Translations under genes and position numbers: made by a program
The notes under the pieces: generated by a model
What the model saw: only the letters and a program-made list of their open reading frames with translations
Told to the model about the DNA's origin: nothing
Database searches by the model: none
Shown here: in pieces, positions 1 through 34,478 of the stretch
How the letters are laid out: each line of letters opens with the position of its first letter
Position numbering within the stretch: position 1 is the stretch's first letter
Origin: a virus
Lineage: Duplodnaviria > Caudoviricetes
Reading direction: 5' to 3' (one strand)
Virus record (IMG/VR): IMGVR_UViG_3300037067_022526
Coordinates: 64,001-128,000 of that record
Length of the DNA stretch: 64,000 bases

Positions 1-878
1 AGAATCCACTGATAGGTAATGACCATTTGCAGACCAACAATGTGGGTATACCCGTAGCTAGTTGTTTCCACCCTCATATGATGAAAGTGCGATGCCTATC
101 CAGGTATTTGTCTCCCTCAGAATTATATAATAACGACGAAAAGTTTAAAGACGCCATCAATCGTTGTTTTGAATTGGGTAACAAACCAAACGAAGCGAAT
201 ATTCGCCGTATCCTCCGCACTCGTGACGGTGTCCGTAGTGCAGTTAATTTTAAGCCAGTTATAGCTAAATATATTTATCAGAACTATGCCCCCACCGGAG
301 GTAAGGTCCTCGACCCTTGCGCTGGCTACGGTGGCAGACTAACCGGACTTATCTCTACTAATAAAAACCTTCTCTATCACGGTATAGACCCCTGCCCAGA
401 GACCACAGTGGGTAACACCCAACTAGCAGCCTTCTATTCCCGCCTATACGAACCCATAACTAAAGAATTGCAGTGGAAGTTTAGGTTTCGTCACGATTTA
501 GGTTGCGCAGAGGATGTCTTGCCCACTTTGCCAGATAAAGAATATGATTTGGTCTTTACTTCGCCACCTTATTTTAATGTAGAACAATATGACACTTTGC
601 CTAATCAGAGCTACCTCAGATATCCTGATTATGAGTCCTGGCGGGATAAATTCTTATCTGTTTTAATCAAAGAATCTTGCCGGGTCTCCAAGCAGTATGT
701 AGTATTAAATGTTAAAAACTATAAGAGCTATCCGATAGCAGACGATGCTCTAAAGTTTGCGGAGCAAATGGGATATGGAATACATAAGACTTACCAAATG
801 AGATTAGCCAATAGCGAATTTCACAGAAGAGAGAGTGAACCGACATATCATGTTGAACCTATTTATGTGTTGTTGTGA
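1..878 (+). CDS. DNA amino-methyltransferase (N4-C/N6-A type), 5'-truncated by window edge
   Basis: SAM-binding motif DPCAGYGGR and catalytic FTSPPY; frame is open back to the window edge; stop codon lies inside the degenerate terminal CRISPR repeat. Confidence 0.85.
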   Translation, partial: NPLIGNDHLQTNNVGIPVASCFHPHMMKVRCLSRYLSPSELYNNDEKFKDAINRCFELGNKPNEANIRRILRTRDGVRSAVNFKPVIAKYIYQNYAPTGGKVLDPCAGYGGRLTGLISTNKNLLYHGIDPCPETTVGNTQLAAFYSRLYEPITKELQWKFRFRHDLGCAEDVLPTLPDKEYDLVFTSPPYFNVEQYDTLPNQSYLRYPDYESWRDKFLSVLIKESCRVSKQYVVLNVKNYKSYPIADDALKFAEQMGYGIHKTYQMRLANSEFHRRESEPTYHVEPIYVLL

Positions 879-1239
879 TTCACTCCCCTCCCCTTCATAG
901 AGGAGAATCACCGATAATTGGGTGTTACCCACTACGGTTTCGTTGCAATTCACTCCCCTTTTCAGGGGAGAAACACCGTGGCATAAGGAGAAACAGCAGT
1001 GGCAAAGGTTGCAATTCACTCCCCTTTTCAGGGGAGAAACACCATTGGCGCATTGTTCTGTTGCCATGTCGTTGTTGCAATTCACTCCCCTTTTCAGGGG
1101 AGAAACACCCATCGAGTGATGTAGCGGTGAAAGCGTCGGTTGCAATTCACTCCCCTTTTCAGGGGAGAAACACCTTTATCTTTGCTGCTGCGTGGCCGTG
1201 GCCGTTGCAATTCACTCCCCTTTTCAGGGGAGAAACACC
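872..1239 (-). CRISPR. CRISPR array 1: five identical 36-nt repeats plus one degenerate trailer repeat, five spacers of 29-30 nt
   Basis: Repeats at 942, 1008, 1074, 1139 and 1204; minus-strand sequence GGTGTTTCTCCCCTGAAAAGGGGAGTGAATTGCAAC (hairpin CTCCCCT-GAAA-AGGGGAG plus 11-nt 3' tail); degenerate copy at 872-912. Confidence 0.98.
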
Positions 1240-1384
1240 CGAGCACTCATAACTTGATATAATTCAGCACCTTATGAGTATTCAGGGTCACAAATTTTGA
1301 GTCGCCCAATTCACTTTTCAAAGAACACTTCCCATTTTCTACGAATTCTCAGTATATTGTACTTGCTCTGCTGCTAAAAGTCAA
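1240..1384 (-). promoter_or_regulatory. Leader and sigma70 promoter of array 1
   Basis: About 110 nt homologous to the array 2 leader; minus-strand TTGACT(1384-1379)-17 nt-TACAAT(1361-1356). Confidence 0.8.
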
Positions 1385-3687
1385 ATCAATTCTTCCATGT
1401 ATCCCAAAAATTCAGTATCGTATTTTCCTGACCACACACACATTCCAGGTATTTTTTCATAGGGTTTAGTATAGTTTAAAATCGTTTTAATATTGCCTTC
1501 GAAAATTTGTACACTATTTCTAACTATATCTGTCGATGTTGGATATTCGATATTATCTATGTTTTCTGGTTTAACTATAACAGTTATTTTATTATTAGGT
1601 ATAACCTGATAAATGTCACCAACATCTTTCATGTATTTTTTTTGTTCAAAGCTCATTAAGCTCCCGATTGTAACAACTTTGTTATTTAAATTGCCAACTA
1701 CATTAAGATTGCCTATTTCATCTTCCATTGCTTCTGCGCAATGTTCTGGTCCTATTTTTCCGAGAGCGTAATATTCTCGAAAAATTTTTGCTCCATCTCT
1801 GAATTCTTTGTTTTCAGTAAAATCATCTAAATCTAACTCGAAAACGTATAGTGTGGAATCATTAAAGACATTATCTCGATTGATTCGACCAGCCAATTGC
1901 AAAGCACTATTTAAATTGCAGTTTTCTCTGAAACCATTTCTGAAAGAAATGTTTATTCCAGATTCTATGCACGATGTTGCAATTAATATGAAATTCTCAT
2001 CGGAACTTAATCGTGATTTGATATCTTCTAATATGACCTCTCGATCTGTAGCACAAAGTGCTGTGGACATGTGTAATACATGTTCACGCCCAATTATCTT
2101 TGATATTGTTTTTGCAACCAATGCTGCGTTTTTGACAGTGTTAAAAACCGCTACTACCGGACCTTTGCTGCGCTCATTTATAACAGCATTACAAATTTGG
2201 GGTAAAGATAGTTTATTCCAATGCCCGTTATCTTGTATGCCGCCTAATTGCTTTATTGTAACTCTGGATTTTTCTTGTTTAAGAGTTATCTCTGAAATCT
2301 CTGGTGGAACTATAGATGGGACATTATAATCAAAACCATCTAAGACATATTTTCTAAATCGCTTGATTTCCCAAGGCTTCGTCATAGACCCAGACACAAA
2401 CAGTACTCGGCATCCCATATTTTCAACTAACCATTTTAAGTAATATAATGTAAGTGGCCACAATTTTGAGGGCAGGCAACAATGAGACTCGTCAAAAATA
2501 ATGAATTTACCGGCTAAATTGAGATACTTTCTAAGCTTTTTAGGTGTGTATCCAGCCAAAGTTTCACAAAATTGTACTGCGGTTGTGCAGGTAATTGGAC
2601 AATTCCATGTCTGTGTATAAAGTTTTGCGGATAGATCATGTTCAAAATCTACTCCAAGATGATGCTCTGCAACGGTTAATTTATCATCTTCTTCGGGCAA
2701 AACAATTGCTTTTCTATAAGTGTCTGCAGTTTGGCTAATAATATTAGTATAAGGTGCAACATAAATTATACCTGACATATTATTAGTATTAACAGTATGT
2801 AAAGCATATGCCAAAGATGATAAAGTTTTGCCATTACCAACTTCACTAGCAAGATATGTAAATGATGCGGAAATTTCTGAATGTCTACACGATTGATATA
2901 TAGCTTGCCTTATTTTGTTCCTCTCGGTTTCTGCTGAAAAGCTACTAACATATTTATCTAGTTGTAGTAATCTTTCATTTGCTTTTATTGGGATTGTGTC
3001 TTCTACTATGAAGTTCTTGTAATTTTTAGCAGTGTCATAGTAGTCTGCTGTTACGAGTACGCTTAATGCTAATCTTGATAGTGGAGCACTAATATTCTTG
3101 TTATAATTCATTCCGCTTTTCAGAGGAGAAACACTTAGGGGTTCAACTAAATTTATTTCTTTTTTATGAAGTTCCATTAGCTTGTCTAATTTTGCATCGA
3201 CATATTCGCTCATGAGCATGTCTGTTTCTTTTACCCACGGACATCTTTCCCCTAGTAAATTATTATCTCGAAGGTCATCGTATAGATTTTTTTGGTATCC
3301 GAGATGATGAGCGAAAACAAGCCATGCTGCGTACCTATATTGATCTGATAAAGACATGTTCCCGTTTTGTGCTGCCTTGTCACATTGACTTATCAGATAA
3401 GACACACCGGCATCAACATGATTTGGCATTTTACAATTTAATACTTTACCACTTAAAACCATTTGACAATAAGGATCAAGCTTCCCTGTGTCATGGTACA
3501 AAATTGCGGTTAATAAATGACATTTTAGAAAATTATAATGATCTTCTGATATGAATGATTTTAATTTTTCTATTTCTTGCTCTGCTTTTAAGTATACACC
3601 AGATATATGATCAATAAAAGATTGTTCTGGAATGTTTCTTTCCAAATCTGCTGAATGGGCTAAGTTACAATTCACTCTACTTTTCAT
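1381..3687 (-). CDS. cas3: Cas3 HD nuclease-helicase (type I-C-like)
   Basis: HD motifs AHS..DH, YHDTGK, AHH; SF2 motifs VGNGKT, YVAPYTNII, FDESH, FNTV, LQLAGRINR; CRISPR context. Confidence 0.95.
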   Translation of the reverse strand: MKSRVNCNLAHSADLERNIPEQSFIDHISGVYLKAEQEIEKLKSFISEDHYNFLKCHLLTAILYHDTGKLDPYCQMVLSGKVLNCKMPNHVDAGVSYLISQCDKAAQNGNMSLSDQYRYAAWLVFAHHLGYQKNLYDDLRDNNLLGERCPWVKETDMLMSEYVDAKLDKLMELHKKEINLVEPLSVSPLKSGMNYNKNISAPLSRLALSVLVTADYYDTAKNYKNFIVEDTIPIKANERLLQLDKYVSSFSAETERNKIRQAIYQSCRHSEISASFTYLASEVGNGKTLSSLAYALHTVNTNNMSGIIYVAPYTNIISQTADTYRKAIVLPEEDDKLTVAEHHLGVDFEHDLSAKLYTQTWNCPITCTTAVQFCETLAGYTPKKLRKYLNLAGKFIIFDESHCCLPSKLWPLTLYYLKWLVENMGCRVLFVSGSMTKPWEIKRFRKYVLDGFDYNVPSIVPPEISEITLKQEKSRVTIKQLGGIQDNGHWNKLSLPQICNAVINERSKGPVVAVFNTVKNAALVAKTISKIIGREHVLHMSTALCATDREVILEDIKSRLSSDENFILIATSCIESGINISFRNGFRENCNLNSALQLAGRINRDNVFNDSTLYVFELDLDDFTENKEFRDGAKIFREYYALGKIGPEHCAEAMEDEIGNLNVVGNLNNKVVTIGSLMSFEQKKYMKDVGDIYQVIPNNKITVIVKPENIDNIEYPTSTDIVRNSVQIFEGNIKTILNYTKPYEKIPGMCVWSGKYDTEFLGYMEELI

Positions 3688-4161
3688 GGAAGAAACACCT
3701 CAATAGTAAGACTTTCAGTTGTAATTCACTCCACTTTTCAAAAGGGGAGAAACACCACGCCCGCCGATCTTTCCGCCGTCGGTTCCGTTACAATTCACTC
3801 TCTTTTTTCAGGAGAGAAACATCAAGTGTCAGCGTCATGTTGCAAGTCTTTCAAAAAATTAGTTGTAATTCACTCCCCCTTTCGGGGGAGAAACACCTCG
3901 TGATTTATGTTACCTATGCACTCGGCGGTTGCAATTCACTCCCCCTTTCGGGGGAGAAACACCTATACCCGAGTGGGGTACAGAAGTTGGCGTGTTGCAA
4001 TTCACTCCCCCTTTCGGGGGAGAAACACCCCCGCTCGTATAACATACCGTAACTGCCAGGTTGCAATTCACTCCCCCTTTCGGGGGAGAAACACCCGTCC
4101 TGAGAATCAAGCAATGCTAGGTCTAGTTGCAATTCACTCCCCCTTTCGGGGGAGAAACACC
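3664..4161 (-). CRISPR. CRISPR array 2: five near-identical repeats plus three degenerate trailer repeats
   Basis: Repeats at 3862 (one mismatch), 3928, 3994, 4060 and 4126, minus-strand GGTGTTTCTCCCCCGAAAGGGGGAGTGAATTGCAAC, with 30-nt spacers; degenerate copies at 3664, 3718 and 3787 with 18-, 30- and 38-nt spacers. Confidence 0.97.
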
Positions 4162-4271
4162 CGAGCACTCATAACTTGGTATAATTCAACACTTTATGAG
4201 TGTTTAGGGTCACAAATTTTGAGATATTTGGTTTACTTTTCAAAGAACGCCTCTCGTTTTTTGCGAATTCT
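4162..4271 (-). promoter_or_regulatory. Leader of array 2
   Basis: Homologous to 1240-1349; inverted repeat ACTCATAA/TTATGAGT around an IHF-like site (ATTCAACACTTTA). Confidence 0.75.
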
Positions 4272-5250
4272 AGCTCAGATCATGTACTTCAAAACTGAAT
4301 CCACATTCCGCAGCATTGGGTACATTGTAATCACTTAGACATATTGGTTTGTCGTTTTTTGCAGTAGGCTTAAGATTATTTATAAATTCAGTTTCTTTGA
4401 AACTTCCAATAGTATTAGAATGGTCTGCCCACCAAACATGTTGTAAATTCATCGAACCCGATGGACGTGCACACGAAGACGATGTTTCGAAAATATGTGG
4501 TAGTATTTTCTTAAGAATATCAATATCTTCTTGGGCAGCATTGGTCAGATGGGCACAATGCGGGTTGACGGAAATTAGTTGATAATACATGCCGTGACGA
4601 ATAAATTTTAGCGCATTTGGACCTATATCTCCAGAAGGATCTTTATCTTTGATCGTTCTTCCTGTATCTGTTGCCAGATGATCTGCGCTTAATGGCGACT
4701 TTTTTGTAACACTTGCCTCGATAATTTCCACTGGCGCAATTGAACACCCGACACCAATCGAAACACATCCAGTACGAACAAATCGAGGTTCTTCTTTCTT
4801 TTCCTTCTCTAGCCCATCTGGTAGAGCTGTTGTTCCGAAAATCCTGACATCAAAATATCGATTTAAAAAGGCTTCAGGGTCAGACTTGGCTAGCGCCATT
4901 GCTTTTCTGGCACATTCAAGCTCTGATGTTCCAGCGTACCCTTTGTTGCGGCTTTCAAATACATACAATCGTTCAGGGTCAAGATTGTCTCTCTTTACAA
5001 AATCCTTGAAAACCGGATTATCATGATCGGACAAGAAATCCCTGATCTTCCTTTTAATAGACATTGGTGATACCCACCCATATCCATCTGGAAATGTGCG
5101 TGGAGCATTTCCTACATCCGGGTCTCCGTTGGGATTTCCACAAATTACTTCATACACTAGCATTCCAACACTGCGATTCAATTGATACATTTTTTTCTCC
5201 AAAGTTGAATTTTCTGTTACGATCGTTTCTGATTTAATTGACTTATTCAT
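4270..5250 (-). CDS. cas7: Cas7 (Csd2-type) backbone subunit
   Basis: NPNGDPD..NAPR and SIKRKIRD motifs, FDVRIFG; start moved to ATG 5250 (GGAG SD, overlaps the cas8 stop). Confidence 0.93.
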   Translation of the reverse strand: MNKSIKSETIVTENSTLEKKMYQLNRSVGMLVYEVICGNPNGDPDVGNAPRTFPDGYGWVSPMSIKRKIRDFLSDHDNPVFKDFVKRDNLDPERLYVFESRNKGYAGTSELECARKAMALAKSDPEAFLNRYFDVRIFGTTALPDGLEKEKKEEPRFVRTGCVSIGVGCSIAPVEIIEASVTKKSPLSADHLATDTGRTIKDKDPSGDIGPNALKFIRHGMYYQLISVNPHCAHLTNAAQEDIDILKKILPHIFETSSSCARPSGSMNLQHVWWADHSNTIGSFKETEFINNLKPTAKNDKPICLSDYNVPNAAECGFSFEVHDLS

Positions 5251-5716
5251 TGTTTTCTCCATTCGGATTTTCCACAGACACTTTTTCAAGATCAACACCG
5301 ATCTCTGACTTGACTGATTTTGGCGACCTATAAGCATATCCCATTTCCAGGAGTATTTTATAAATATCAGGATCAAACTCATTAAATTGGTTAACGCTCT
5401 TAAATTGATTATTATGTAAATCAGGCATTATATTCATAAGTTTACTAATTATTTCTTTATATTCTCTGATTGGCAAATAACCATGTTTATATGGCTCTTT
5501 TTCTTTGCGAATATAATTTTCTGCCCAACATTCGTACTTAGAAAAGTTTCCTATAAATGTTCCTAGCGCTCGTTTTGGAAATTTATATGCTTGCTGTATA
5601 TATTCTTGTCCGATAAGCTTTTGAGGTTCATTTATCCCTCTACTCTTAAAATATATTCGGTGAATATTGTTTGCTTGACTAAATAATTGTCCCATTAAAA
5701 ACGGCACACTGTTCAT
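5243..5716 (-). CDS. cas11: Cas11 small subunit translated internally from cas8
   Basis: In-frame ATG 5716 preceded by AAGGAG (5728-5723) at 6-nt spacing; MNSVPFLMGQLF motif; internal Cas11 translation is established for type I-C. Confidence 0.7.
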   Translation of the reverse strand: MNSVPFLMGQLFSQANNIHRIYFKSRGINEPQKLIGQEYIQQAYKFPKRALGTFIGNFSKYECWAENYIRKEKEPYKHGYLPIREYKEIISKLMNIMPDLHNNQFKSVNQFNEFDPDIYKILLEMGYAYRSPKSVKSEIGVDLEKVSVENPNGENNE

Positions 5717-7186
5717 GATCATCTCCTTTGTAAAACCATTTTTACTCAAAACAATCCCCGAAATTGGCACCAGCCATTGCCGTTCATACGGCATTTTTTC
5801 TAATTTACCATCAGAACACTCAATTAGCATTTTGGTATGATTTTTTGCAAATATGCGAGTAACTTTTTTAATTGCTTTTTCGTTTTCGAAAAAGAAGTCG
5901 TATATATCTGAAATTGTTATATACTCTCGCTCTATAATAGATGATATTTTATTACGATCATTTTTCCATATTTTATTAATACATTTAGAAAAATTAGAAA
6001 TAGTTGGCGGGAGAAATTTGCCTTTGCAAACAAATTTAGACGGACGAGTTGATGTTCCGGATACCCATTTGTTTACACAATTAGCAATATTTTTTCCATT
6101 CATTTCTTTATGATATTTAATTTGACACGCACCATTTTTGGGTATAAATAGGACAAAAATTGAACATTGAAATGGTGTTTTATTAATCTCACCGTTTAAC
6201 ATGTGAACAATCTTTTTGCCCTCTGCCTCCCATTGTTCAATATCCATTTGGTTGGATTCTTCTGTTCGACCCTCAATCCAGTCAGATGAAGGTGATAGAG
6301 TAGTAATAACCAAATCTCTTCCGTTGTCTTTTTGGATATAATACCAGAGACCATTTCGAGTGCCTTCTTTTCCTAAATTGTTATAATAAAAATTCTCAGA
6401 TACAATAGAATTGATGATTTTCAGTATTTGTTTGCGAGTAGAATTTCCGATTTTGCACGCATTTACACCAGACATGCCAAATCGTTCATAGCATTCATTA
6501 TCCTCATTTTTAGAATAAAGTTTTATTGTGCCGACGCCGCAAGGGAGCTTGGTTTCAAATGTTTTTGATTTATTTTCCCACCCATCGGCAGGATTGTTGA
6601 GTATGTCGATATCGATAGATGAGTTTGTTTGTTTAGAAATAAGCCAATCATTCACCACCTTCATTGACTCACTATTTTGAACCTTATTGGAAAATTTTAA
6701 TTGTTTCCAATCTGGAATGTCTAGAGAAAAATAACAACTTTTGATCTTTTTATCTTGTTGTGAAATAAAGTCATCTAATTTGTTCATTAAAGCATTTGGA
6801 TCAATTCGAGATAATCTATTGGATAATTCTTTGAAAGCACAAAACCTATCTTGATCATCTATATGTTTAGATATATCGGAATGGCAATATAAATGATGTT
6901 TAATTCCATTCAGTCTTTTCTTAGAATCTTTATTAGTGTCATATTTGAAAGTAAATCCAGATGCAAAATTAGAGTATTTAAAATATCTAAGATCGGAAGC
7001 AGACTCAGACTCAAAAGGTTCGATAGCGATATCAAGATTCTTATCAATTAATATAAGAAAACGTTGACCGTTATTATTTTTGGGCATTTGTGGATGCCAC
7101 GTTGTATCGTTTGTGTTTGATAAATCCCCAATATTCAGACCCCAGCTTTTTAAACTTTCTTCAATTGATAATATTTCATGCAACAT
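5243..7186 (-). CDS. cas8c: Divergent Cas8c (Csd1)-like large subunit
   Basis: Position between cas5 and cas7, 647 aa, C-terminal PFLMGQLFSQANNIH resembles the Cas11c region; N-terminal part not recognisable by eye. Confidence 0.75.
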   Translation of the reverse strand: MLHEILSIEESLKSWGLNIGDLSNTNDTTWHPQMPKNNNGQRFLILIDKNLDIAIEPFESESASDLRYFKYSNFASGFTFKYDTNKDSKKRLNGIKHHLYCHSDISKHIDDQDRFCAFKELSNRLSRIDPNALMNKLDDFISQQDKKIKSCYFSLDIPDWKQLKFSNKVQNSESMKVVNDWLISKQTNSSIDIDILNNPADGWENKSKTFETKLPCGVGTIKLYSKNEDNECYERFGMSGVNACKIGNSTRKQILKIINSIVSENFYYNNLGKEGTRNGLWYYIQKDNGRDLVITTLSPSSDWIEGRTEESNQMDIEQWEAEGKKIVHMLNGEINKTPFQCSIFVLFIPKNGACQIKYHKEMNGKNIANCVNKWVSGTSTRPSKFVCKGKFLPPTISNFSKCINKIWKNDRNKISSIIEREYITISDIYDFFFENEKAIKKVTRIFAKNHTKMLIECSDGKLEKMPYERQWLVPISGIVLSKNGFTKEMIMNSVPFLMGQLFSQANNIHRIYFKSRGINEPQKLIGQEYIQQAYKFPKRALGTFIGNFSKYECWAENYIRKEKEPYKHGYLPIREYKEIISKLMNIMPDLHNNQFKSVNQFNEFDPDIYKILLEMGYAYRSPKSVKSEIGVDLEKVSVENPNGENNE

Positions 7187-7203
7187 TTTTAATCTCCATT
7201 TAA

Positions 7204-7887
7204 TTATTTATTTAAATTTTCGTTTTCAAACTTTAGAATTCCATTGGCTGCGATTACTTTCTCGGGACCAAGTTGTAAAATTCCATGAGCGATTCGCAAA
7301 GTTTCTGTTATTGGAAATTGCATAATATATCCATTTTTTTTGTCAAAATATTGTAGGACATATCCGTGTAAAATTTCATTATAATCAGAAATTATGGGAG
7401 TTATAGGTAATCCGACATAATCAGAAAAAAAGTCGCTCGGACCAAGTGTCGGCATTCGATAATATTGTTCTTTACTTAATCGACGATAAAATTGATCGCG
7501 ATATGAATGGGCACAATTAATATGTGCGTATTTTGGGTGAGGTGGTTCTACGGTAGACCTTTTGGCGGTTGCACAAATTTGAAATCTAGGGCGAAGCAAA
7601 GCTGTAGCTTTTATTTGACATGCATTTCCATCTCTTTTCTGTCCTTCTTTTCGAATTGATGACCACGAATTAAAAGCATAATCTAAATATTCTGGTCGGT
7701 GACATATCCCGATAGCTTCTATTTGTATGGATGCACTTTTAACTCTTAAAATTGACTGCATTATACCAAATGCCGCAGTGGGCGTAGGAACTGGATAACT
7801 ACATGGTTCTGATCCGCTATCAGGTCTGGCGAACATGCCTATGGGTCCGCCAACCTCGAATATGATTCCGTAAGATTTCTGGTACAT
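7204..7887 (-). CDS. cas5: Cas5 (Cas5d-type, likely the crRNA-processing nuclease)
   Basis: EVGGPIGMFARPD..SYPVPTPTAAFGI motif; start at ATG 7887 after AAGGAG; no cas6 present. Confidence 0.92.
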   Translation of the reverse strand: MYQKSYGIIFEVGGPIGMFARPDSGSEPCSYPVPTPTAAFGIMQSILRVKSASIQIEAIGICHRPEYLDYAFNSWSSIRKEGQKRDGNACQIKATALLRPRFQICATAKRSTVEPPHPKYAHINCAHSYRDQFYRRLSKEQYYRMPTLGPSDFFSDYVGLPITPIISDYNEILHGYVLQYFDKKNGYIMQFPITETLRIAHGILQLGPEKVIAANGILKFENENLNK

Positions 7888-7907
7888 TCTGAATCTCCTT
7901 TCAAACA

Positions 7908-7936
7908 ATTATAACCTTAGCGTGATGGGAAGTCAA
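7908..7936 (-). promoter_or_regulatory. sigma70 promoter of the cas operon
   Basis: TTGACT-17-TATAAT on the minus strand. Confidence 0.8.
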
Positions 7937-7973
7937 GCGAGAGATATTAGATTTTTTAAAAATATTCGTGGCC

Positions 7974-8002
7974 TTGACAATTTACGTAGCAGGCAATATA
8001 AT
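7974..8002 (+). promoter_or_regulatory. Consensus sigma70 promoter, divergent from the cas operon
   Basis: TTGACA-17-TATAAT. Confidence 0.88.
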
Positions 8003-8011
8003 GGATTGTAA

Positions 8012-8046
8012 GATGTTTCTCCCCTAAAAAGGGAGTGAATTGCAAC
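8012..8046 (+). repeat. Solitary CRISPR repeat (array-type)
   Basis: GATGTTTCTCCCCTAAAAAGGGAGTGAATTGCAAC, intact 11-nt 3' handle, 9 nt after the -10 box. Confidence 0.9.
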
Positions 8047-8068
8047 GTGATGATGTCGAGGAAATCAG

Positions 8069-8353
8069 ATGTGGAATTTGACAGAACACGCAAAACCGGT
8101 CACCGGAGAAGAATCTTTAGTAATTTATACTTGTCCGCAATTTCTTGAGGACGAACATCCTGGTATATATTACATACACGAAGCATACTGTATACACAAT
8201 GGTTTCTGTCGTTATTACCCGGATGAAGGTTGGTTCTGTGGGGATAATAAAATGCCAGAACCCGTAGCGTGGATCCGTCCCGAAAAATTGTTAGAGTATT
8301 TTTTGACGCAACTACCCAGCAAAGATCAGTCAGCTACAACACCTTTCAGATAA
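8069..8353 (+). CDS. Hypothetical protein, paralog of 13268..13519
   Basis: Shared MWNLT..AKPV.GE.SLVIY and WFCGD..MPEP.AW.RPEKLLE motifs. Confidence 0.75.
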   Translation: MWNLTEHAKPVTGEESLVIYTCPQFLEDEHPGIYYIHEAYCIHNGFCRYYPDEGWFCGDNKMPEPVAWIRPEKLLEYFLTQLPSKDQSATTPFR

Positions 8354-9252
8354 TCAGATATCGCAGTCCTGATGATATCTACGTAAGAAATTTCACAGTC
8401 ATTTTCATATGCTTGCTTGCGGGCAACTCTTTTTAATTGTTCTAATTGATCACTCAAAATTCGGATGCTGATTGTGATATTCTCAACGACATTTTGAAAT
8501 TTCGACCCAAATTCACATCCGAAATCGCCATCAGACATATGTTGGTTTTCTTGCCGCAGCATCTCTTCGGTATAATCGGTATTCACTTCCCATGTGGGTA
8601 GTTGGCATATCAACCTGTAATCAGGTGCAGTTGAAATTAAATTATATAATAAATCGCCTTTGCGCCTTGGTGACGAGACTATAATAGTTCGTGATTCATG
8701 CACTCCGTCATGTTTGAAGTCGGCAGTGCTGGGAATCAATGCATTATAAATTCTATCACCCGACTGCCCTGGAAATGACGCGATCTCATTGAATACAAGA
8801 GTGAAATATCGCTTGCCCAGGAGATTTGAACTATTGGCGTGAGCAACCATTAAACAAATGTATCCTGATCGATTCCGCCTTGGCAACCAAATTTTGTTCT
8901 GCTCTATTTTGGTTATCTCATCTCGAAAATACTCAGATCGAGTAACAAGCAGTTTCAACTCCGTGAAGAAAGATCTTGCCTCCTCTGCACTATTACAAAC
9001 AGCAAGCTGATAAATCGTGTCCTGGTTTGGGATATTATAATATTCAAACGGATTTGGTATTTCTAATAGTCGCCGTGTCTCTGCCAGTAGCAGCAGTGTA
9101 GCAAGATAATCCTTTCCGCTACGTCTTCCCAAAACGGCAACTAACTCTCGGTATTGTCCAATATAGAAGTTGGACATGATTTCTTTTAACCTCGGATATA
9201 ACTTAATGTTAGGTGTAATTAAATATTGCTCGATAAATTCCATTGAAGTCAT
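8326..9252 (-). CDS. Terminase-large-subunit-like ATPase domain fused to a C-terminal ribbon-helix-helix domain
   Basis: GRRSGK Walker A, LVFNEIA (Walker B with D to N), IVSSP, LPTWEVN; no nuclease domain; RHH ISIRI..LKRVAR..SYVDIIR; start at 9252 with GAAAGGAG SD. Confidence 0.75.
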   Translation of the reverse strand: MTSMEFIEQYLITPNIKLYPRLKEIMSNFYIGQYRELVAVLGRRSGKDYLATLLLLAETRRLLEIPNPFEYYNIPNQDTIYQLAVCNSAEEARSFFTELKLLVTRSEYFRDEITKIEQNKIWLPRRNRSGYICLMVAHANSSNLLGKRYFTLVFNEIASFPGQSGDRIYNALIPSTADFKHDGVHESRTIIVSSPRRKGDLLYNLISTAPDYRLICQLPTWEVNTDYTEEMLRQENQHMSDGDFGCEFGSKFQNVVENITISIRILSDQLEQLKRVARKQAYENDCEISYVDIIRTAISDYLKGVVAD

Positions 9253-9358
9253 AAAAAGCTCCTTTCTACTAATACTTACTTCGCTGTCATAATTATTTCC
9301 TGTAAGAATTATGACAAAATTTACCACATAATACATTATACAGCGCAGGAGATGTGGA

Positions 9359-9583
9359 ATGTTTCTTCAATGAAGTGAATTGCAACTTGACAACTCCCAC
9401 AGCCAGCAGTATAATGAGCCGTAAGATGTTTCTCTTTTGAAAAGAGGAGTGAATTACACAACATGGTAGTGTGGATTTTACTCATCAATGCCATACTTTG
9501 TGCATTATTCTTCTTTTTCGGCGTTTTCTGCGGATGGAGTTTAAGCTCGGATATAGATGTTTCTCCCCTGAAAAGGGGAGTGA
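9359..9583 (+). repeat. Three degenerate or partial CRISPR repeats (mini-array-like)
   Basis: Copies at 9359-9386, 9425-9462 and 9556-9583 (the last has a perfect array-1 hairpin and lies inside an ORF). Confidence 0.8.
9387..9415 (+). promoter_or_regulatory. Consensus sigma70 promoter in spacer position
   Basis: TTGACA-17-TATAAT; homologous to 7974-8011. Confidence 0.85.
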
Positions 9584-9840
9584 TAAAAAATCATATTGCT
9601 GCCGGACAGAAGGGTGCAGAGCTTTTGCGTAATAAATTTGGACTTATTAATATAGAAACCAGATCGGAAAGATACCCCGAGTCCCAAAGTATATCTCCGC
9701 AAAAGGCCCTAGATTTATTAAATGTATCTTGTGTTTGGATATCCAAACCATCTCTTAATGTTGTCATAGAGACATCGACAGGGAATTACCGAGTGAGATT
9801 CAGTGAATTTGACCGATACTTTTTATGCGGAGACAAATAA
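9463..9840 (+). CDS. Hypothetical membrane-anchored protein
   Basis: Hydrophobic N-terminus; ATG directly follows a repeat; contains repeat-derived DVSPLKRGV. Confidence 0.55.
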   Translation: MVVWILLINAILCALFFFFGVFCGWSLSSDIDVSPLKRGVIKNHIAAGQKGAELLRNKFGLINIETRSERYPESQSISPQKALDLLNVSCVWISKPSLNVVIETSTGNYRVRFSEFDRYFLCGDK

Positions 9841-12415: not shown

Positions 12416-12892
12416 ATGACATCTGAAGCAATTATAAATCGTAAGAAATATGCTCATCGCCTTGGATTTTGGTACATTAATGTATTAACAGCAGTTCAAT
12501 CTATGGGATATTCAGAGGAAGAATCCAAGCAAATTTGCACTGAGGCTGGTATTGACTGGGAAAAAGATGTAGAACAAACAAAAAATGAATATATAGTACG
12601 ATCGAACCAGTCCCGGCAAAAGCAACAAAAAAGGTATTCTAAATATCAGAGTGAATTAGAAACTCAGTTGACTAAACAACAACTCGATATATTAGATCAA
12701 CTTAGAACTTTTAAATCTATACTATGTAAAGAAAATGAAATAGCAGATTCTCTTGTGTCTTTAGGATTAGCCCGCAAACTAGATGATGGATATTATGATC
12801 GTGGTGAACAAGCATGGGAAAAATATAATGCAGAGTTAGCAGAGATGAAAAAACTAAGCCTAAAAGAATTAATAAAGAAAATGGATGAATAA
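12416..12892 (+). CDS. Hypothetical protein
   Basis: AAGGAG SD, 158-aa ORF. Confidence 0.65.
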   Translation: MTSEAIINRKKYAHRLGFWYINVLTAVQSMGYSEEESKQICTEAGIDWEKDVEQTKNEYIVRSNQSRQKQQKRYSKYQSELETQLTKQQLDILDQLRTFKSILCKENEIADSLVSLGLARKLDDGYYDRGEQAWEKYNAELAEMKKLSLKELIKKMDE

Positions 12893-34335: not shown

Positions 34336-34363
34336 TTGACTTCCGGTGAATAGTGGGTATAAT
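34336..34363 (+). promoter_or_regulatory. sigma70 promoter of the tRNA cluster
   Basis: TTGACT-16-TATAAT. Confidence 0.75.
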
Positions 34364-34369
34364 TAGGCA

Positions 34370-34400
34370 GTCGCGCCTTGATAGGCGTGTGGATTGTAAG
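34370..34400 (+). repeat. Solitary canonical type I-C-like CRISPR repeat
   Basis: GTCGCGCCTTGATAGGCGTGTGGATTGTAAG against the canonical pattern GTCGCGCC-loop-GGCGCGTGGATTGAAAC. Confidence 0.65.
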
Positions 34401-34409
34401 GAGATTATC

Positions 34410-34478
34410 GTGAAACGAGAGCTAGACAGATTATATTGTTTGCTGGATTGGTACCTCCGAAAGGAGGTGGCTGCCTAA
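34410..34478 (+). CDS. Putative attenuator leader peptide MKRELDRLYCLLDWYLRKEVAA
   Basis: AAGGAG 6 nt before GTG; codons match the downstream tRNA anticodons; followed by a terminator. Confidence 0.7.
   Translation: MKRELDRLYCLLDWYLRKEVAA

Follow-up and report, generated by a model that had tools for sequence, protein, structure and literature searches.

The stretch of DNA analysed here (the window) comprises 64,000 nucleotides (nt) of a Caudoviricetes phage, IMG/VR record IMGVR_UViG_3300037067_022526, and corresponds to bases 16399-80398 of the 90,156-bp virus record, whose completeness is estimated at 65%. A CRISPR-Cas locus occupies window positions 800-9600, with both arrays and all cas genes on the minus strand, and the focus of the analysis is the junction at which the last repeat of one array (array 2) runs directly into cas3, the gene for the interference nuclease. 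In order of transcription, the locus consists of a promoter (Pcas), cas5c, cas8c, cas7c, a leader, array 2, cas3, a promoter, a leader and array 1. The main features are as follows.

7908..7936, minus strand: Pcas, TTGACT-17-TATAAT (11/12 matches), preceding cas5
7204..7887, minus strand: cas5c, 227 amino acids (aa), presumed endonuclease of the precursor CRISPR RNA (pre-crRNA); PADLOC Cas5c, 4e-12
5243..7186, minus strand: cas8c, 647 aa; PADLOC Cas8c, 9e-44
4270..5250, minus strand: cas7c, 326 aa; Pfam Cas_Cas7, 7e-42; PADLOC Cas7c, 7e-40; also a gene call in the public ENA assembly L009
4161..4269, minus strand: array-2 leader, 109 nt, homologous to the array-1 leader
3664-4160, minus strand: array 2, eight repeats, the first five perfect and the last three degenerate
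1381..3687, minus strand: cas3, 768 aa, HD nuclease and SF2 helicase; PADLOC Cas3c, 2e-91
1356..1384, minus strand: array-1 promoter, TTGACT-17-TACAAT (10/12), overlapping the cas3 stop
872..1238, minus strand: array 1, five perfect repeats and one degenerate repeat

All four Cas proteins were assigned to subtype I-C by PADLOC. The NCBIfam matches all fell under the curated cut-offs save that to the generic Cas5 domain (Csd2 reached 129 bits against a cut-off of 182), and a profile built from five Cas5 family members matched solved I-C Cas5 'pre-crRNA processing endonuclease' chains (3e-18). Translation of cas5 starts at ATG 7887 (minus strand), with the Shine-Dalgarno (SD) sequence AGGAGA. 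Type I-C systems carry the adaptation module cas4-cas1-cas2, and their pre-crRNA is processed by Cas5. The phage locus resembles type I-C (Dvulg) in its Cas5c, Cas8c, Cas7c and HD-helicase Cas3, in having no Cas6 among the open reading frames (ORFs) of the locus, and in a repeat formed by a hairpin and an 11-nt flank whose end, ATTGCAAC, is near the I-C handle ATTGAAAC. It differs in gene order (cas5-cas8-cas7-array-cas3-array, as against cas3-cas5-cas8-cas7-cas4-cas1-cas2-array), in the start of cas3 within a repeat, and in the lack of any match to Cas1 (PF01867) across the 90-kb, 65% complete record; Cas2 and Cas4 were not searched for. By gene content, this is an interference module of type I-C carried by a phage, with no adaptation genes found (Cas1 searched). 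Type I-C variants that are borne by phages and lack adaptation genes have been described (Al-Shayeb et al., 2020, PMC7162821). Selected passages of that paper describe systems that, like the present one, are virus-borne and have compact arrays (5-8 repeats here) and presumed Cas5d-like processing, and a named variant in which a helicase replaces Cas3, whereas the present locus encodes a full HD-Cas3; in the same passages, no cas3 abuts an array or starts within a repeat. A comparison of 700-9800 with Rfam gave no hit at an E-value limit as loose as 1, and two array-2 spacers had no exact match in IMG/VR.

The last repeat of array 2 and the start of cas3

The repeat has the structure GTGTTT-CTCCCC(C)-GAAA-GGGGGAG-TGAATTGCAAC, in which a stem is followed by an 11-nt 3' flank ending in ATTGCAAC. 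The consensus folds at -13.8 and -15.8 kcal/mol (z about -3.6), the latter value (z -3.6) belonging to the stem CTCCCCC-GAAA-GGGGGAG with TGAATTGCAAC, which has the stem-loop and 11-nt flank of I-C repeats. Towards cas3, array 2 becomes progressively degenerate.

3862..4160, minus strand: repeats 1-5, 35 nt, hairpin intact, 11-nt handle TGAATTGCAAC, 31-nt spacers
3787..3823, minus strand: repeat 6, degenerate, stem CTCTC/GAGAG with one compensatory pair, -6.1 kcal/mol
3718..3756, minus strand: repeat 7, degenerate, stem kept, handle TGAATTACAAC, -8.1 kcal/mol; predicted last Cas5 site
3699..3717, minus strand: spacer 7, 19 nt, ending ...TTGAG; gives the in-frame TGA and the GA of the SD
3664..3698, minus strand: repeat 8 (terminal), hairpin lost, 30/35 identical to the array-1 consensus

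A single handle base is changed in repeat 5, and spacer 5 is unusually long (38 nt), AT-rich and holds TTGAAA and TTGCAA; the 11-nt handle of repeat 7 also has one change relative to the consensus. The loop TGAAAA of array 1 was found in repeats 7 and 8 and in a further copy inside cas3, array-2 repeats 1-5 having CGAAAG. Repeat 8 is clearly recognizable, as no position within 12 mismatches occurred in 20 whole-window shuffles. Of its five substitutions, four lie within the 12 stem positions (binomial p about 0.05, own calculation), with no compensatory change among them; its fold (-1.2 kcal/mol) was equalled by 142 of 200 shuffles. A preliminary description of this DNA had held that the hairpin of the terminal repeat is disrupted and that the preceding repeat keeps its stem and handle, and the folds of repeats 8 and 7 (-1.2 and -8.1) agree with it. 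Repeat 8 shares with other degenerate terminal repeats its leader-distal last position, its several substitutions and its place behind repeats that decay step by step; but where such repeats normally form trailers without coding function, repeat 8 bears the only start available to an essential interference gene.

On the minus strand, the SD GAGGTG (3701-3696) is composed of the GA at the end of spacer 7 and of GGTG, i.e. the G preceding the repeat and the repeat's own GTG. Eight bases (3695-3688) separate it from ATG 3687-3685, which exists because position 12 of the repeat has changed from C to A (CTG to ATG). The codons ATG AAA AGT AGA GTG AAT TGT AAC (MKSRVNCN) finish at the final base of the repeat, 3664, and TTA GCC CAT TCA, encoding the conserved HD motif LAHS, directly abuts the end of repeat 8. 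The preliminary description had likewise built the SD, the start codon and the first eight residues of cas3 from the last repeat of array 2, with spacer-derived GA joined to repeat-derived GGTG 8 nt before a mutation-made ATG and with MKSRVNCN running into LAHS; the sequence reads exactly so, in a repeat matching at 30/35 positions and with the codons ending at the repeat boundary, 3664.

An in-frame TGA lies upstream of cas3 at 3702-3700, and between it and AHS the only in-frame ATG, GTG or TTG codons are ATG 3687 and GTG 3675, both of which fall within repeat 8. The N-termini of cas3 products in 27 full-length homologues follow the pattern M-x(2-4)-AHS, with A10 and S12 conserved in at least 90% of them and A10-H11-S12 invariant in the nearest nine, and the Cas3c profile alignment begins at residue 9. 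Because all start codons that would retain the AHS motif lie there, any Cas3 with HD motif I must, on this sequence, initiate inside repeat 8. Either codon may be used, SD spacing favouring ATG 3687 and N-terminal length favouring GTG 3675. Were GTG 3675, the first codon of the repeat handle, the true start, the protein would begin M-N-C-N-L-A-H-S and the upstream ATG and SD would be incidental. Clade members begin 2-4 residues before AHS and this codon yields four; as part of the consensus handle, it would also have been present since the fusion. Yet no SD-like sequence lies 5-10 nt upstream of it (AAAAGTAGA), whereas a perfect 6-nt SD stands 8 nt ahead of ATG 3687, which itself came from a specific substitution, and initiation at the GTG is considered rather unlikely.

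The junction is no assembly artefact, because it is identical in assemblies of two unrelated studies and in one ENA assembly: positions 3896-3600 are the same in the window, in the ENA assembly (of unstated origin) and in a Logan contig, and contigs from two runs, one of landfill (2018) and one of groundwater (2022), span 3000-3896 with zero differences. The arrays are unchanged between the 2018 and 2022 samples. Mechanically called ORFs of 66-143 aa that cross array 2 (3837-4338, both strands) are spurious, one of them being annotated as a gene in the ENA assembly (L009 9350-9781). Array finders and gene callers collide at such junctions, which calls for care in annotation.

From its sequence, the cas3 gene looks functional. 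The 768-codon frame is open, all 40 family-invariant residues and nearly all 90%-conserved ones are present, and the HD motifs H11, H65-D66, H90, D92 and H127-H128 as well as the helicase motifs are conserved. A decaying cas3, with Cascade acting alone, e.g. as a repressor, and the repeat overlap being an eroding 5' end, would be in keeping with the many phage CRISPR systems that have no nuclease, as related in parts of PMC7162821, and with a second repeat copy within the cas3 reading frame (3100..3134, minus strand, 30/35, codons 185-196, SVSPLKSGMNYN). This copy is in frame, however, and lies in a variable loop of the HD domain; together with the open frame, the retention of the 40 invariant residues, HD and helicase motifs included, and the identity of samples taken four years apart, this makes decay highly improbable. 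The loop that holds the copy is 5-10 residues longer than in relatives, and the cas3 genes of L016, L022 and L023, three related loci described below, have no internal repeat copies. The copy starts exactly 188 codons downstream of repeat 8 and shares its reading frame, so that recombination between the two would delete HD motifs I-IV in frame. A mosaic 5' part of cas3 bounded by the two repeat copies was considered and rejected, identity to relatives being similar over residues 9-184, 197-260 and 261-768.

Transcription, processing and possible control of cas3

Promoters were scanned for as sigma-70-type sites with a threshold of 9/12. On the minus strand from the leader to cas3 (4216-3700), no sigma-70-like site of at least 9/12 was found, no -10 element with correct spacing could be recognized by eye ahead of cas3, and there is no terminator between array 2 and cas3. 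The array-2 leader itself carries only a weak promoter-like site (4243-4216, minus strand, 9/12). Nearby promoters include two perfect 12/12 sites and Pcas at 11/12; to judge from these sequences, the host clearly uses sigma-70 consensus promoters, and since the local promoters are near-perfect matches, a comparable cas3 promoter would have been detected. The simplest reading of the sequence is that cas5-cas8-cas7-array 2-cas3 form a single transcript, and cas3, having no upstream region of its own, most likely depends for its expression on being the last part of the CRISPR RNA transcript. It is considered probable, though by no means certain, that cas3 is read from the cas-operon/pre-crRNA transcript, with its start region taken from the last repeat and its 5' end set by Cas5c at repeat 7.

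A non-consensus promoter may instead lie in the decayed end of array 2 (spacers 5-7, repeats 6-7), making cas3 expression independent of pre-crRNA. The long, AT-rich spacer 5 with its TTGAAA and TTGCAA hexamers would offer material for such a promoter, the three degenerate repeats may have stopped serving as crRNA units, and another locus, L042, shows that a promoter can lie between an array and cas3. The proposal is nonetheless distinctly unlikely in view of the lack of minus-strand sites of at least 9/12 in 4216-3700 and of a well-spaced -10 element by eye, the near-perfect sigma-70 consensus of the phage's nearby promoters, and the 18-19-nt gaps in relatives L022 and L023, which are too small for a promoter past the last repeat.

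For expression from the pre-crRNA, a mechanism can be proposed in which Pcas would drive cas5c, cas8c, cas7c, array 2 and cas3 as one unit, perhaps assisted by a weak leader promoter, and the last array-2 repeat would have been co-opted as the cas3 translation initiation region. The first bases of the repeat, with the end of the shortened 19-nt spacer, would serve as the SD, the C-to-A change in the former stem as the ATG, and the repeat loop, 3' stem arm and handle would be read as cas3 codons 2-8, leading into LAHS. The stem-breaking substitutions would leave the SD and AUG no longer paired by the repeat's own hairpin, and would also abolish the Cas5c site otherwise expected at G|UG (3675/3674). 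Cas5 of type I-C cleaves where the stem ends on its 3' side. In repeat 8, such a cut would sever both start codons from the gene, and hairpin loss is therefore expected if cas3 has to be expressed. Cleavage by Cas5c at repeat 7, the last hairpin-bearing repeat, just before 3728 would produce a cas3 mRNA with a 41-nt leader, the first 11 nt of which would be the crRNA 5' handle. The co-transcription of array 2 and cas3 is inferred from the sequence and the Cas5 cleavage position at repeat 7 from type I-C biochemistry; the nuclease level would, by extension, be quantitatively coupled to crRNA processing.

Further pairing around the start may modulate initiation. Cas3 codons 15-20 (UGGAAAGAAACAUU, 3631..3644, minus strand) are complementary to the SD-to-AUG stretch GGUGUUUCUUCCA, with 13 pairs and one bulge, and may act as an SD-sequestering arm. 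The 81-nt local fold reaches -17.5 kcal/mol (z -2.1; 5/200 shuffles as good); longer folds around the start (114 and 141 nt) were no better than shuffles. In the unprocessed precursor, codons 15-20 can, in the predicted fold, pair instead with the identical GUGUUUCU of repeat 7, and cas3 codons 5-8 hold a second handle-like sequence (10/11). Processing could change the accessibility of the start, and the handle-bearing leader could nucleate Cas5-Cas7 over the ribosome-binding site. Taken further, repeat-derived leaders in this phage might form a post-transcriptional circuit under Cas5 and Cascade control. Cas5 binding and Cas7 polymerisation from the handles on the cas3 mRNA would mask the SD and AUG, so that excess free Cascade subunits would lower Cas3 and their titration by crRNAs or inhibitors would raise it; processing would strip GUGUUUCU of repeat 7, release codons 15-20 for pairing with the SD-to-AUG stretch and so operate as a switch. 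Two promoter-repeat-ORF cassettes, at 7974-8069 and 9387-9463, would belong to the circuit as well, as would the repeat copies in cas3 and in the ORF starting at 9463. This larger scheme is regarded as unlikely.

The cassettes are two homologous elements (7974-8069 and 9356-9591, plus strand), each with a perfect TTGACA-17-TATAAT promoter immediately ahead of a solitary repeat of the phage's own type, and then an ORF, the starts being ATG 8069 and ATG 9463, the latter abutting the repeat. The second of them has its SD, GAGGAG, within the 3' stem arm, so that a predicted Cas5 cut would part SD and ATG. Just upstream of the promoter of this second cassette there is a short repeat fragment (9356-9386), and a perfect hairpin copy without handle (9557-9583) is found inside ORF 9463-9840.

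In type I systems the dangerous Cas3 has to be kept in balance with Cascade and crRNA, and the means by which this is achieved are understood only in part, known solutions being separate promoters and trans-acting crRNA-like repressors. A phage I-C clade with cas3 right behind the last repeat suggests a solution in cis, in which the crRNA endonuclease carves out the cas3 message. Synthetic Csy4/Cas6 hairpin 'insulators' were reportedly placed between cistrons by Qi and colleagues in 2012. In both cases a repeat upstream of the ribosome-binding site would be cut by a crRNA endonuclease that defines the 5' end of the downstream cistron and makes it independent of the RNA upstream; the insulators are engineered, whereas the phage locus would, to judge by its layout, be a natural counterpart of these RNA-processing devices. 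If borne out, it would also be a plain example of how a CRISPR repeat can be converted to encode protein and direct translation, and a compact design that might be reused in minimal type I-C editing cassettes. A literature search of incomplete coverage retrieved no description of a cas gene starting in a repeat or of a cas3 expressed as a processed pre-crRNA tail.

Type I loci often have repeat-like sequences next to cas3, which act in trans as regulatory mini-arrays (PMC10120712; bioRxiv 10.1101/2023.03.10.532045). Like these CreR/CreA elements, the junction has degenerate repeats around an unusually short spacer (19 nt here) and adjoins cas3. CreR/CreA elements act in trans, guiding Cascade to a partly matching promoter, whereas repeat 8 acts in cis, as ribosome-binding site, start and coding sequence. 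A CreR-like reading of repeat 7-spacer 7-repeat 8 was rejected, spacer 7 having no other match of at least 15/19 in the 90-kb genome (the best were 14/19 and 13/19, neither near a cas promoter) and no partial target there.

Related loci and the origin of the arrangement

Searching viral contigs with a single protein returned no relatives, which were recovered by alignment-based searches. The closest Cas3 relatives are 34-46% identical. In L011, L012, L015 and L019, cas7 is directly followed by cas3 and the array lies elsewhere (downstream of cas3 in L011, the nearest relative). In three other cases the array lies between cas7 and cas3 and ends just before the ATG.

L016/L017: array-to-cas3 ATG gap 38 nt, N-terminus MNIAHS
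L022 (a 527-kb phage): gap 18 nt, N-terminus MEYLAHS
L023: gap 19 nt, N-terminus MYIAHS

In these loci and in the window, a same-strand array lies less than 40 nt from the cas3 start or overlaps it, without intervening promoter or terminator, and their Cas3 proteins belong to one nine-member clade (Shimodaira-Hasegawa-like approximate likelihood ratio test, SH-aLRT, 99%). The array abuts cas3 in 4/9 clade loci versus 0/79 cellular loci, none of these 79 control loci from cellular genomes of the wider Cas3 family having an array in the 300 nt ahead of cas3. Of about 70 loci from metagenomes, L042 alone has an array so placed, and its 75-nt gap carries an extended -10 promoter of its own. In the last repeat of L016, two double compensatory changes keep the stem (CCTGA/TCAGG to CCCAA/TTGGG), a pattern that points to selection for a processing site directly upstream of cas3. 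As far as the compared sequences go, the literal start-in-repeat fusion is unique to this phage, and the architecture in which the array abuts cas3 recurs in the clade. An array can also stand ahead of another cas gene. In L012-L014 the array stops 48 nt before cas5, the first gene of a cas5-cas8-cas7-cas3 block; that of L012 (4130-4340) has more than 30 repeats, and the whole cas block would there be a pre-crRNA tail.

The preliminary description had proposed the pre-crRNA tail as the message from which cas3 is translated, and had named conservation of the fusion in homologous loci as a check. The first proposal holds up in so far as cas3 has no intergenic space, no sigma-70-like promoter of at least 9/12, no terminator and no start outside the repeat, and as arrays abutting cas3 recur in three divergent relatives; the check, once run, went the other way, start-in-repeat being found in this phage only. 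Several points weigh against expression of cas3 from the processed pre-crRNA. The fusion is confined to one lineage; the abutting of array and cas3 needs at least two changes on the tree and shows no significant clustering within the clade, whose internal branching is unresolved, the number of origins being put at two changes or more. No recognisable SD was found in the 18-38-nt gaps of the relatives. The N-termini of the homologues, M-x(2-4)-AHS, are shorter than the one encoded from ATG 3687, and GTG 3675, which fits their length better, stays an alternative. The local fold pairing the SD and AUG with codons 15-20 would, if real, hinder initiation, and a phage-specific or weak promoter within the degenerate array tail is possible.

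The leaders of arrays 1 and 2 bear on the origin of the junction. A 98-nt copy that includes the repeat is 93% alike between them, and a further 40 nt are 83% alike. The array-1 leader and array were likely copied to the cas7-cas3 junction, with a repeat at the end of the copy; a start may have been at hand immediately in the handle's in-frame GTG, the stem-breaking changes and the ATG coming later. The same data lend themselves to a neutral account, in which a duplicate of the array-1 leader and array landed by accident between cas7 and cas3 and an in-frame repeat start rescued cas3. Plain read-through would then make cas3, and the layout would be without regulatory meaning. The 83-93% identity of the leaders, the adjacency of cas7 and cas3 with the array elsewhere in the closest relatives (L011, L012, L015 and L019), the start codon that the consensus handle provides for free as an in-frame GTG, and the restriction of the fusion to a single lineage are all consistent with such an accident. 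It accounts less readily for the position of 4/5 substitutions in the stem (p about 0.05) and the creation of an SD-ATG pair, for the sharing of the array-abuts-cas3 layout with tiny gaps by divergent phages, in one of which (L016) compensatory changes keep the last hairpin, and for the absence of this layout from the 79 cellular loci. A neutral accident is possible, if somewhat doubtful.

Other repeat and spacer elements

At 34337-34420 (plus strand), a sigma-70 promoter is followed by a single canonical I-C repeat (GTCGCGCC...GGCGTGTGGATTGTAAG), which is unlike the phage's own repeat, is the only copy in the 90-kb genome and overlaps with its end the SD of a small ORF. This element may be a repeat unit standing on its own or an RNA anti-CRISPR against a host I-C system. 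Spacer 5 of array 1, the oldest one (912-941, minus strand), matches the adjacent methyltransferase-like gene of the same phage (399-428, plus strand) at 24/30 positions, 16 nt of which form an exact core; its probable target is not this phage but the corresponding gene in a related competitor. In L016, at 12500-12632, a promoter is followed by a two-repeat mini-array whose 24-nt spacer shares TTTGTGGTA with its own -10 region, and the promoter resembles the cas5 promoter of that locus, making this mini-array a candidate CreR-like autoregulatory element.

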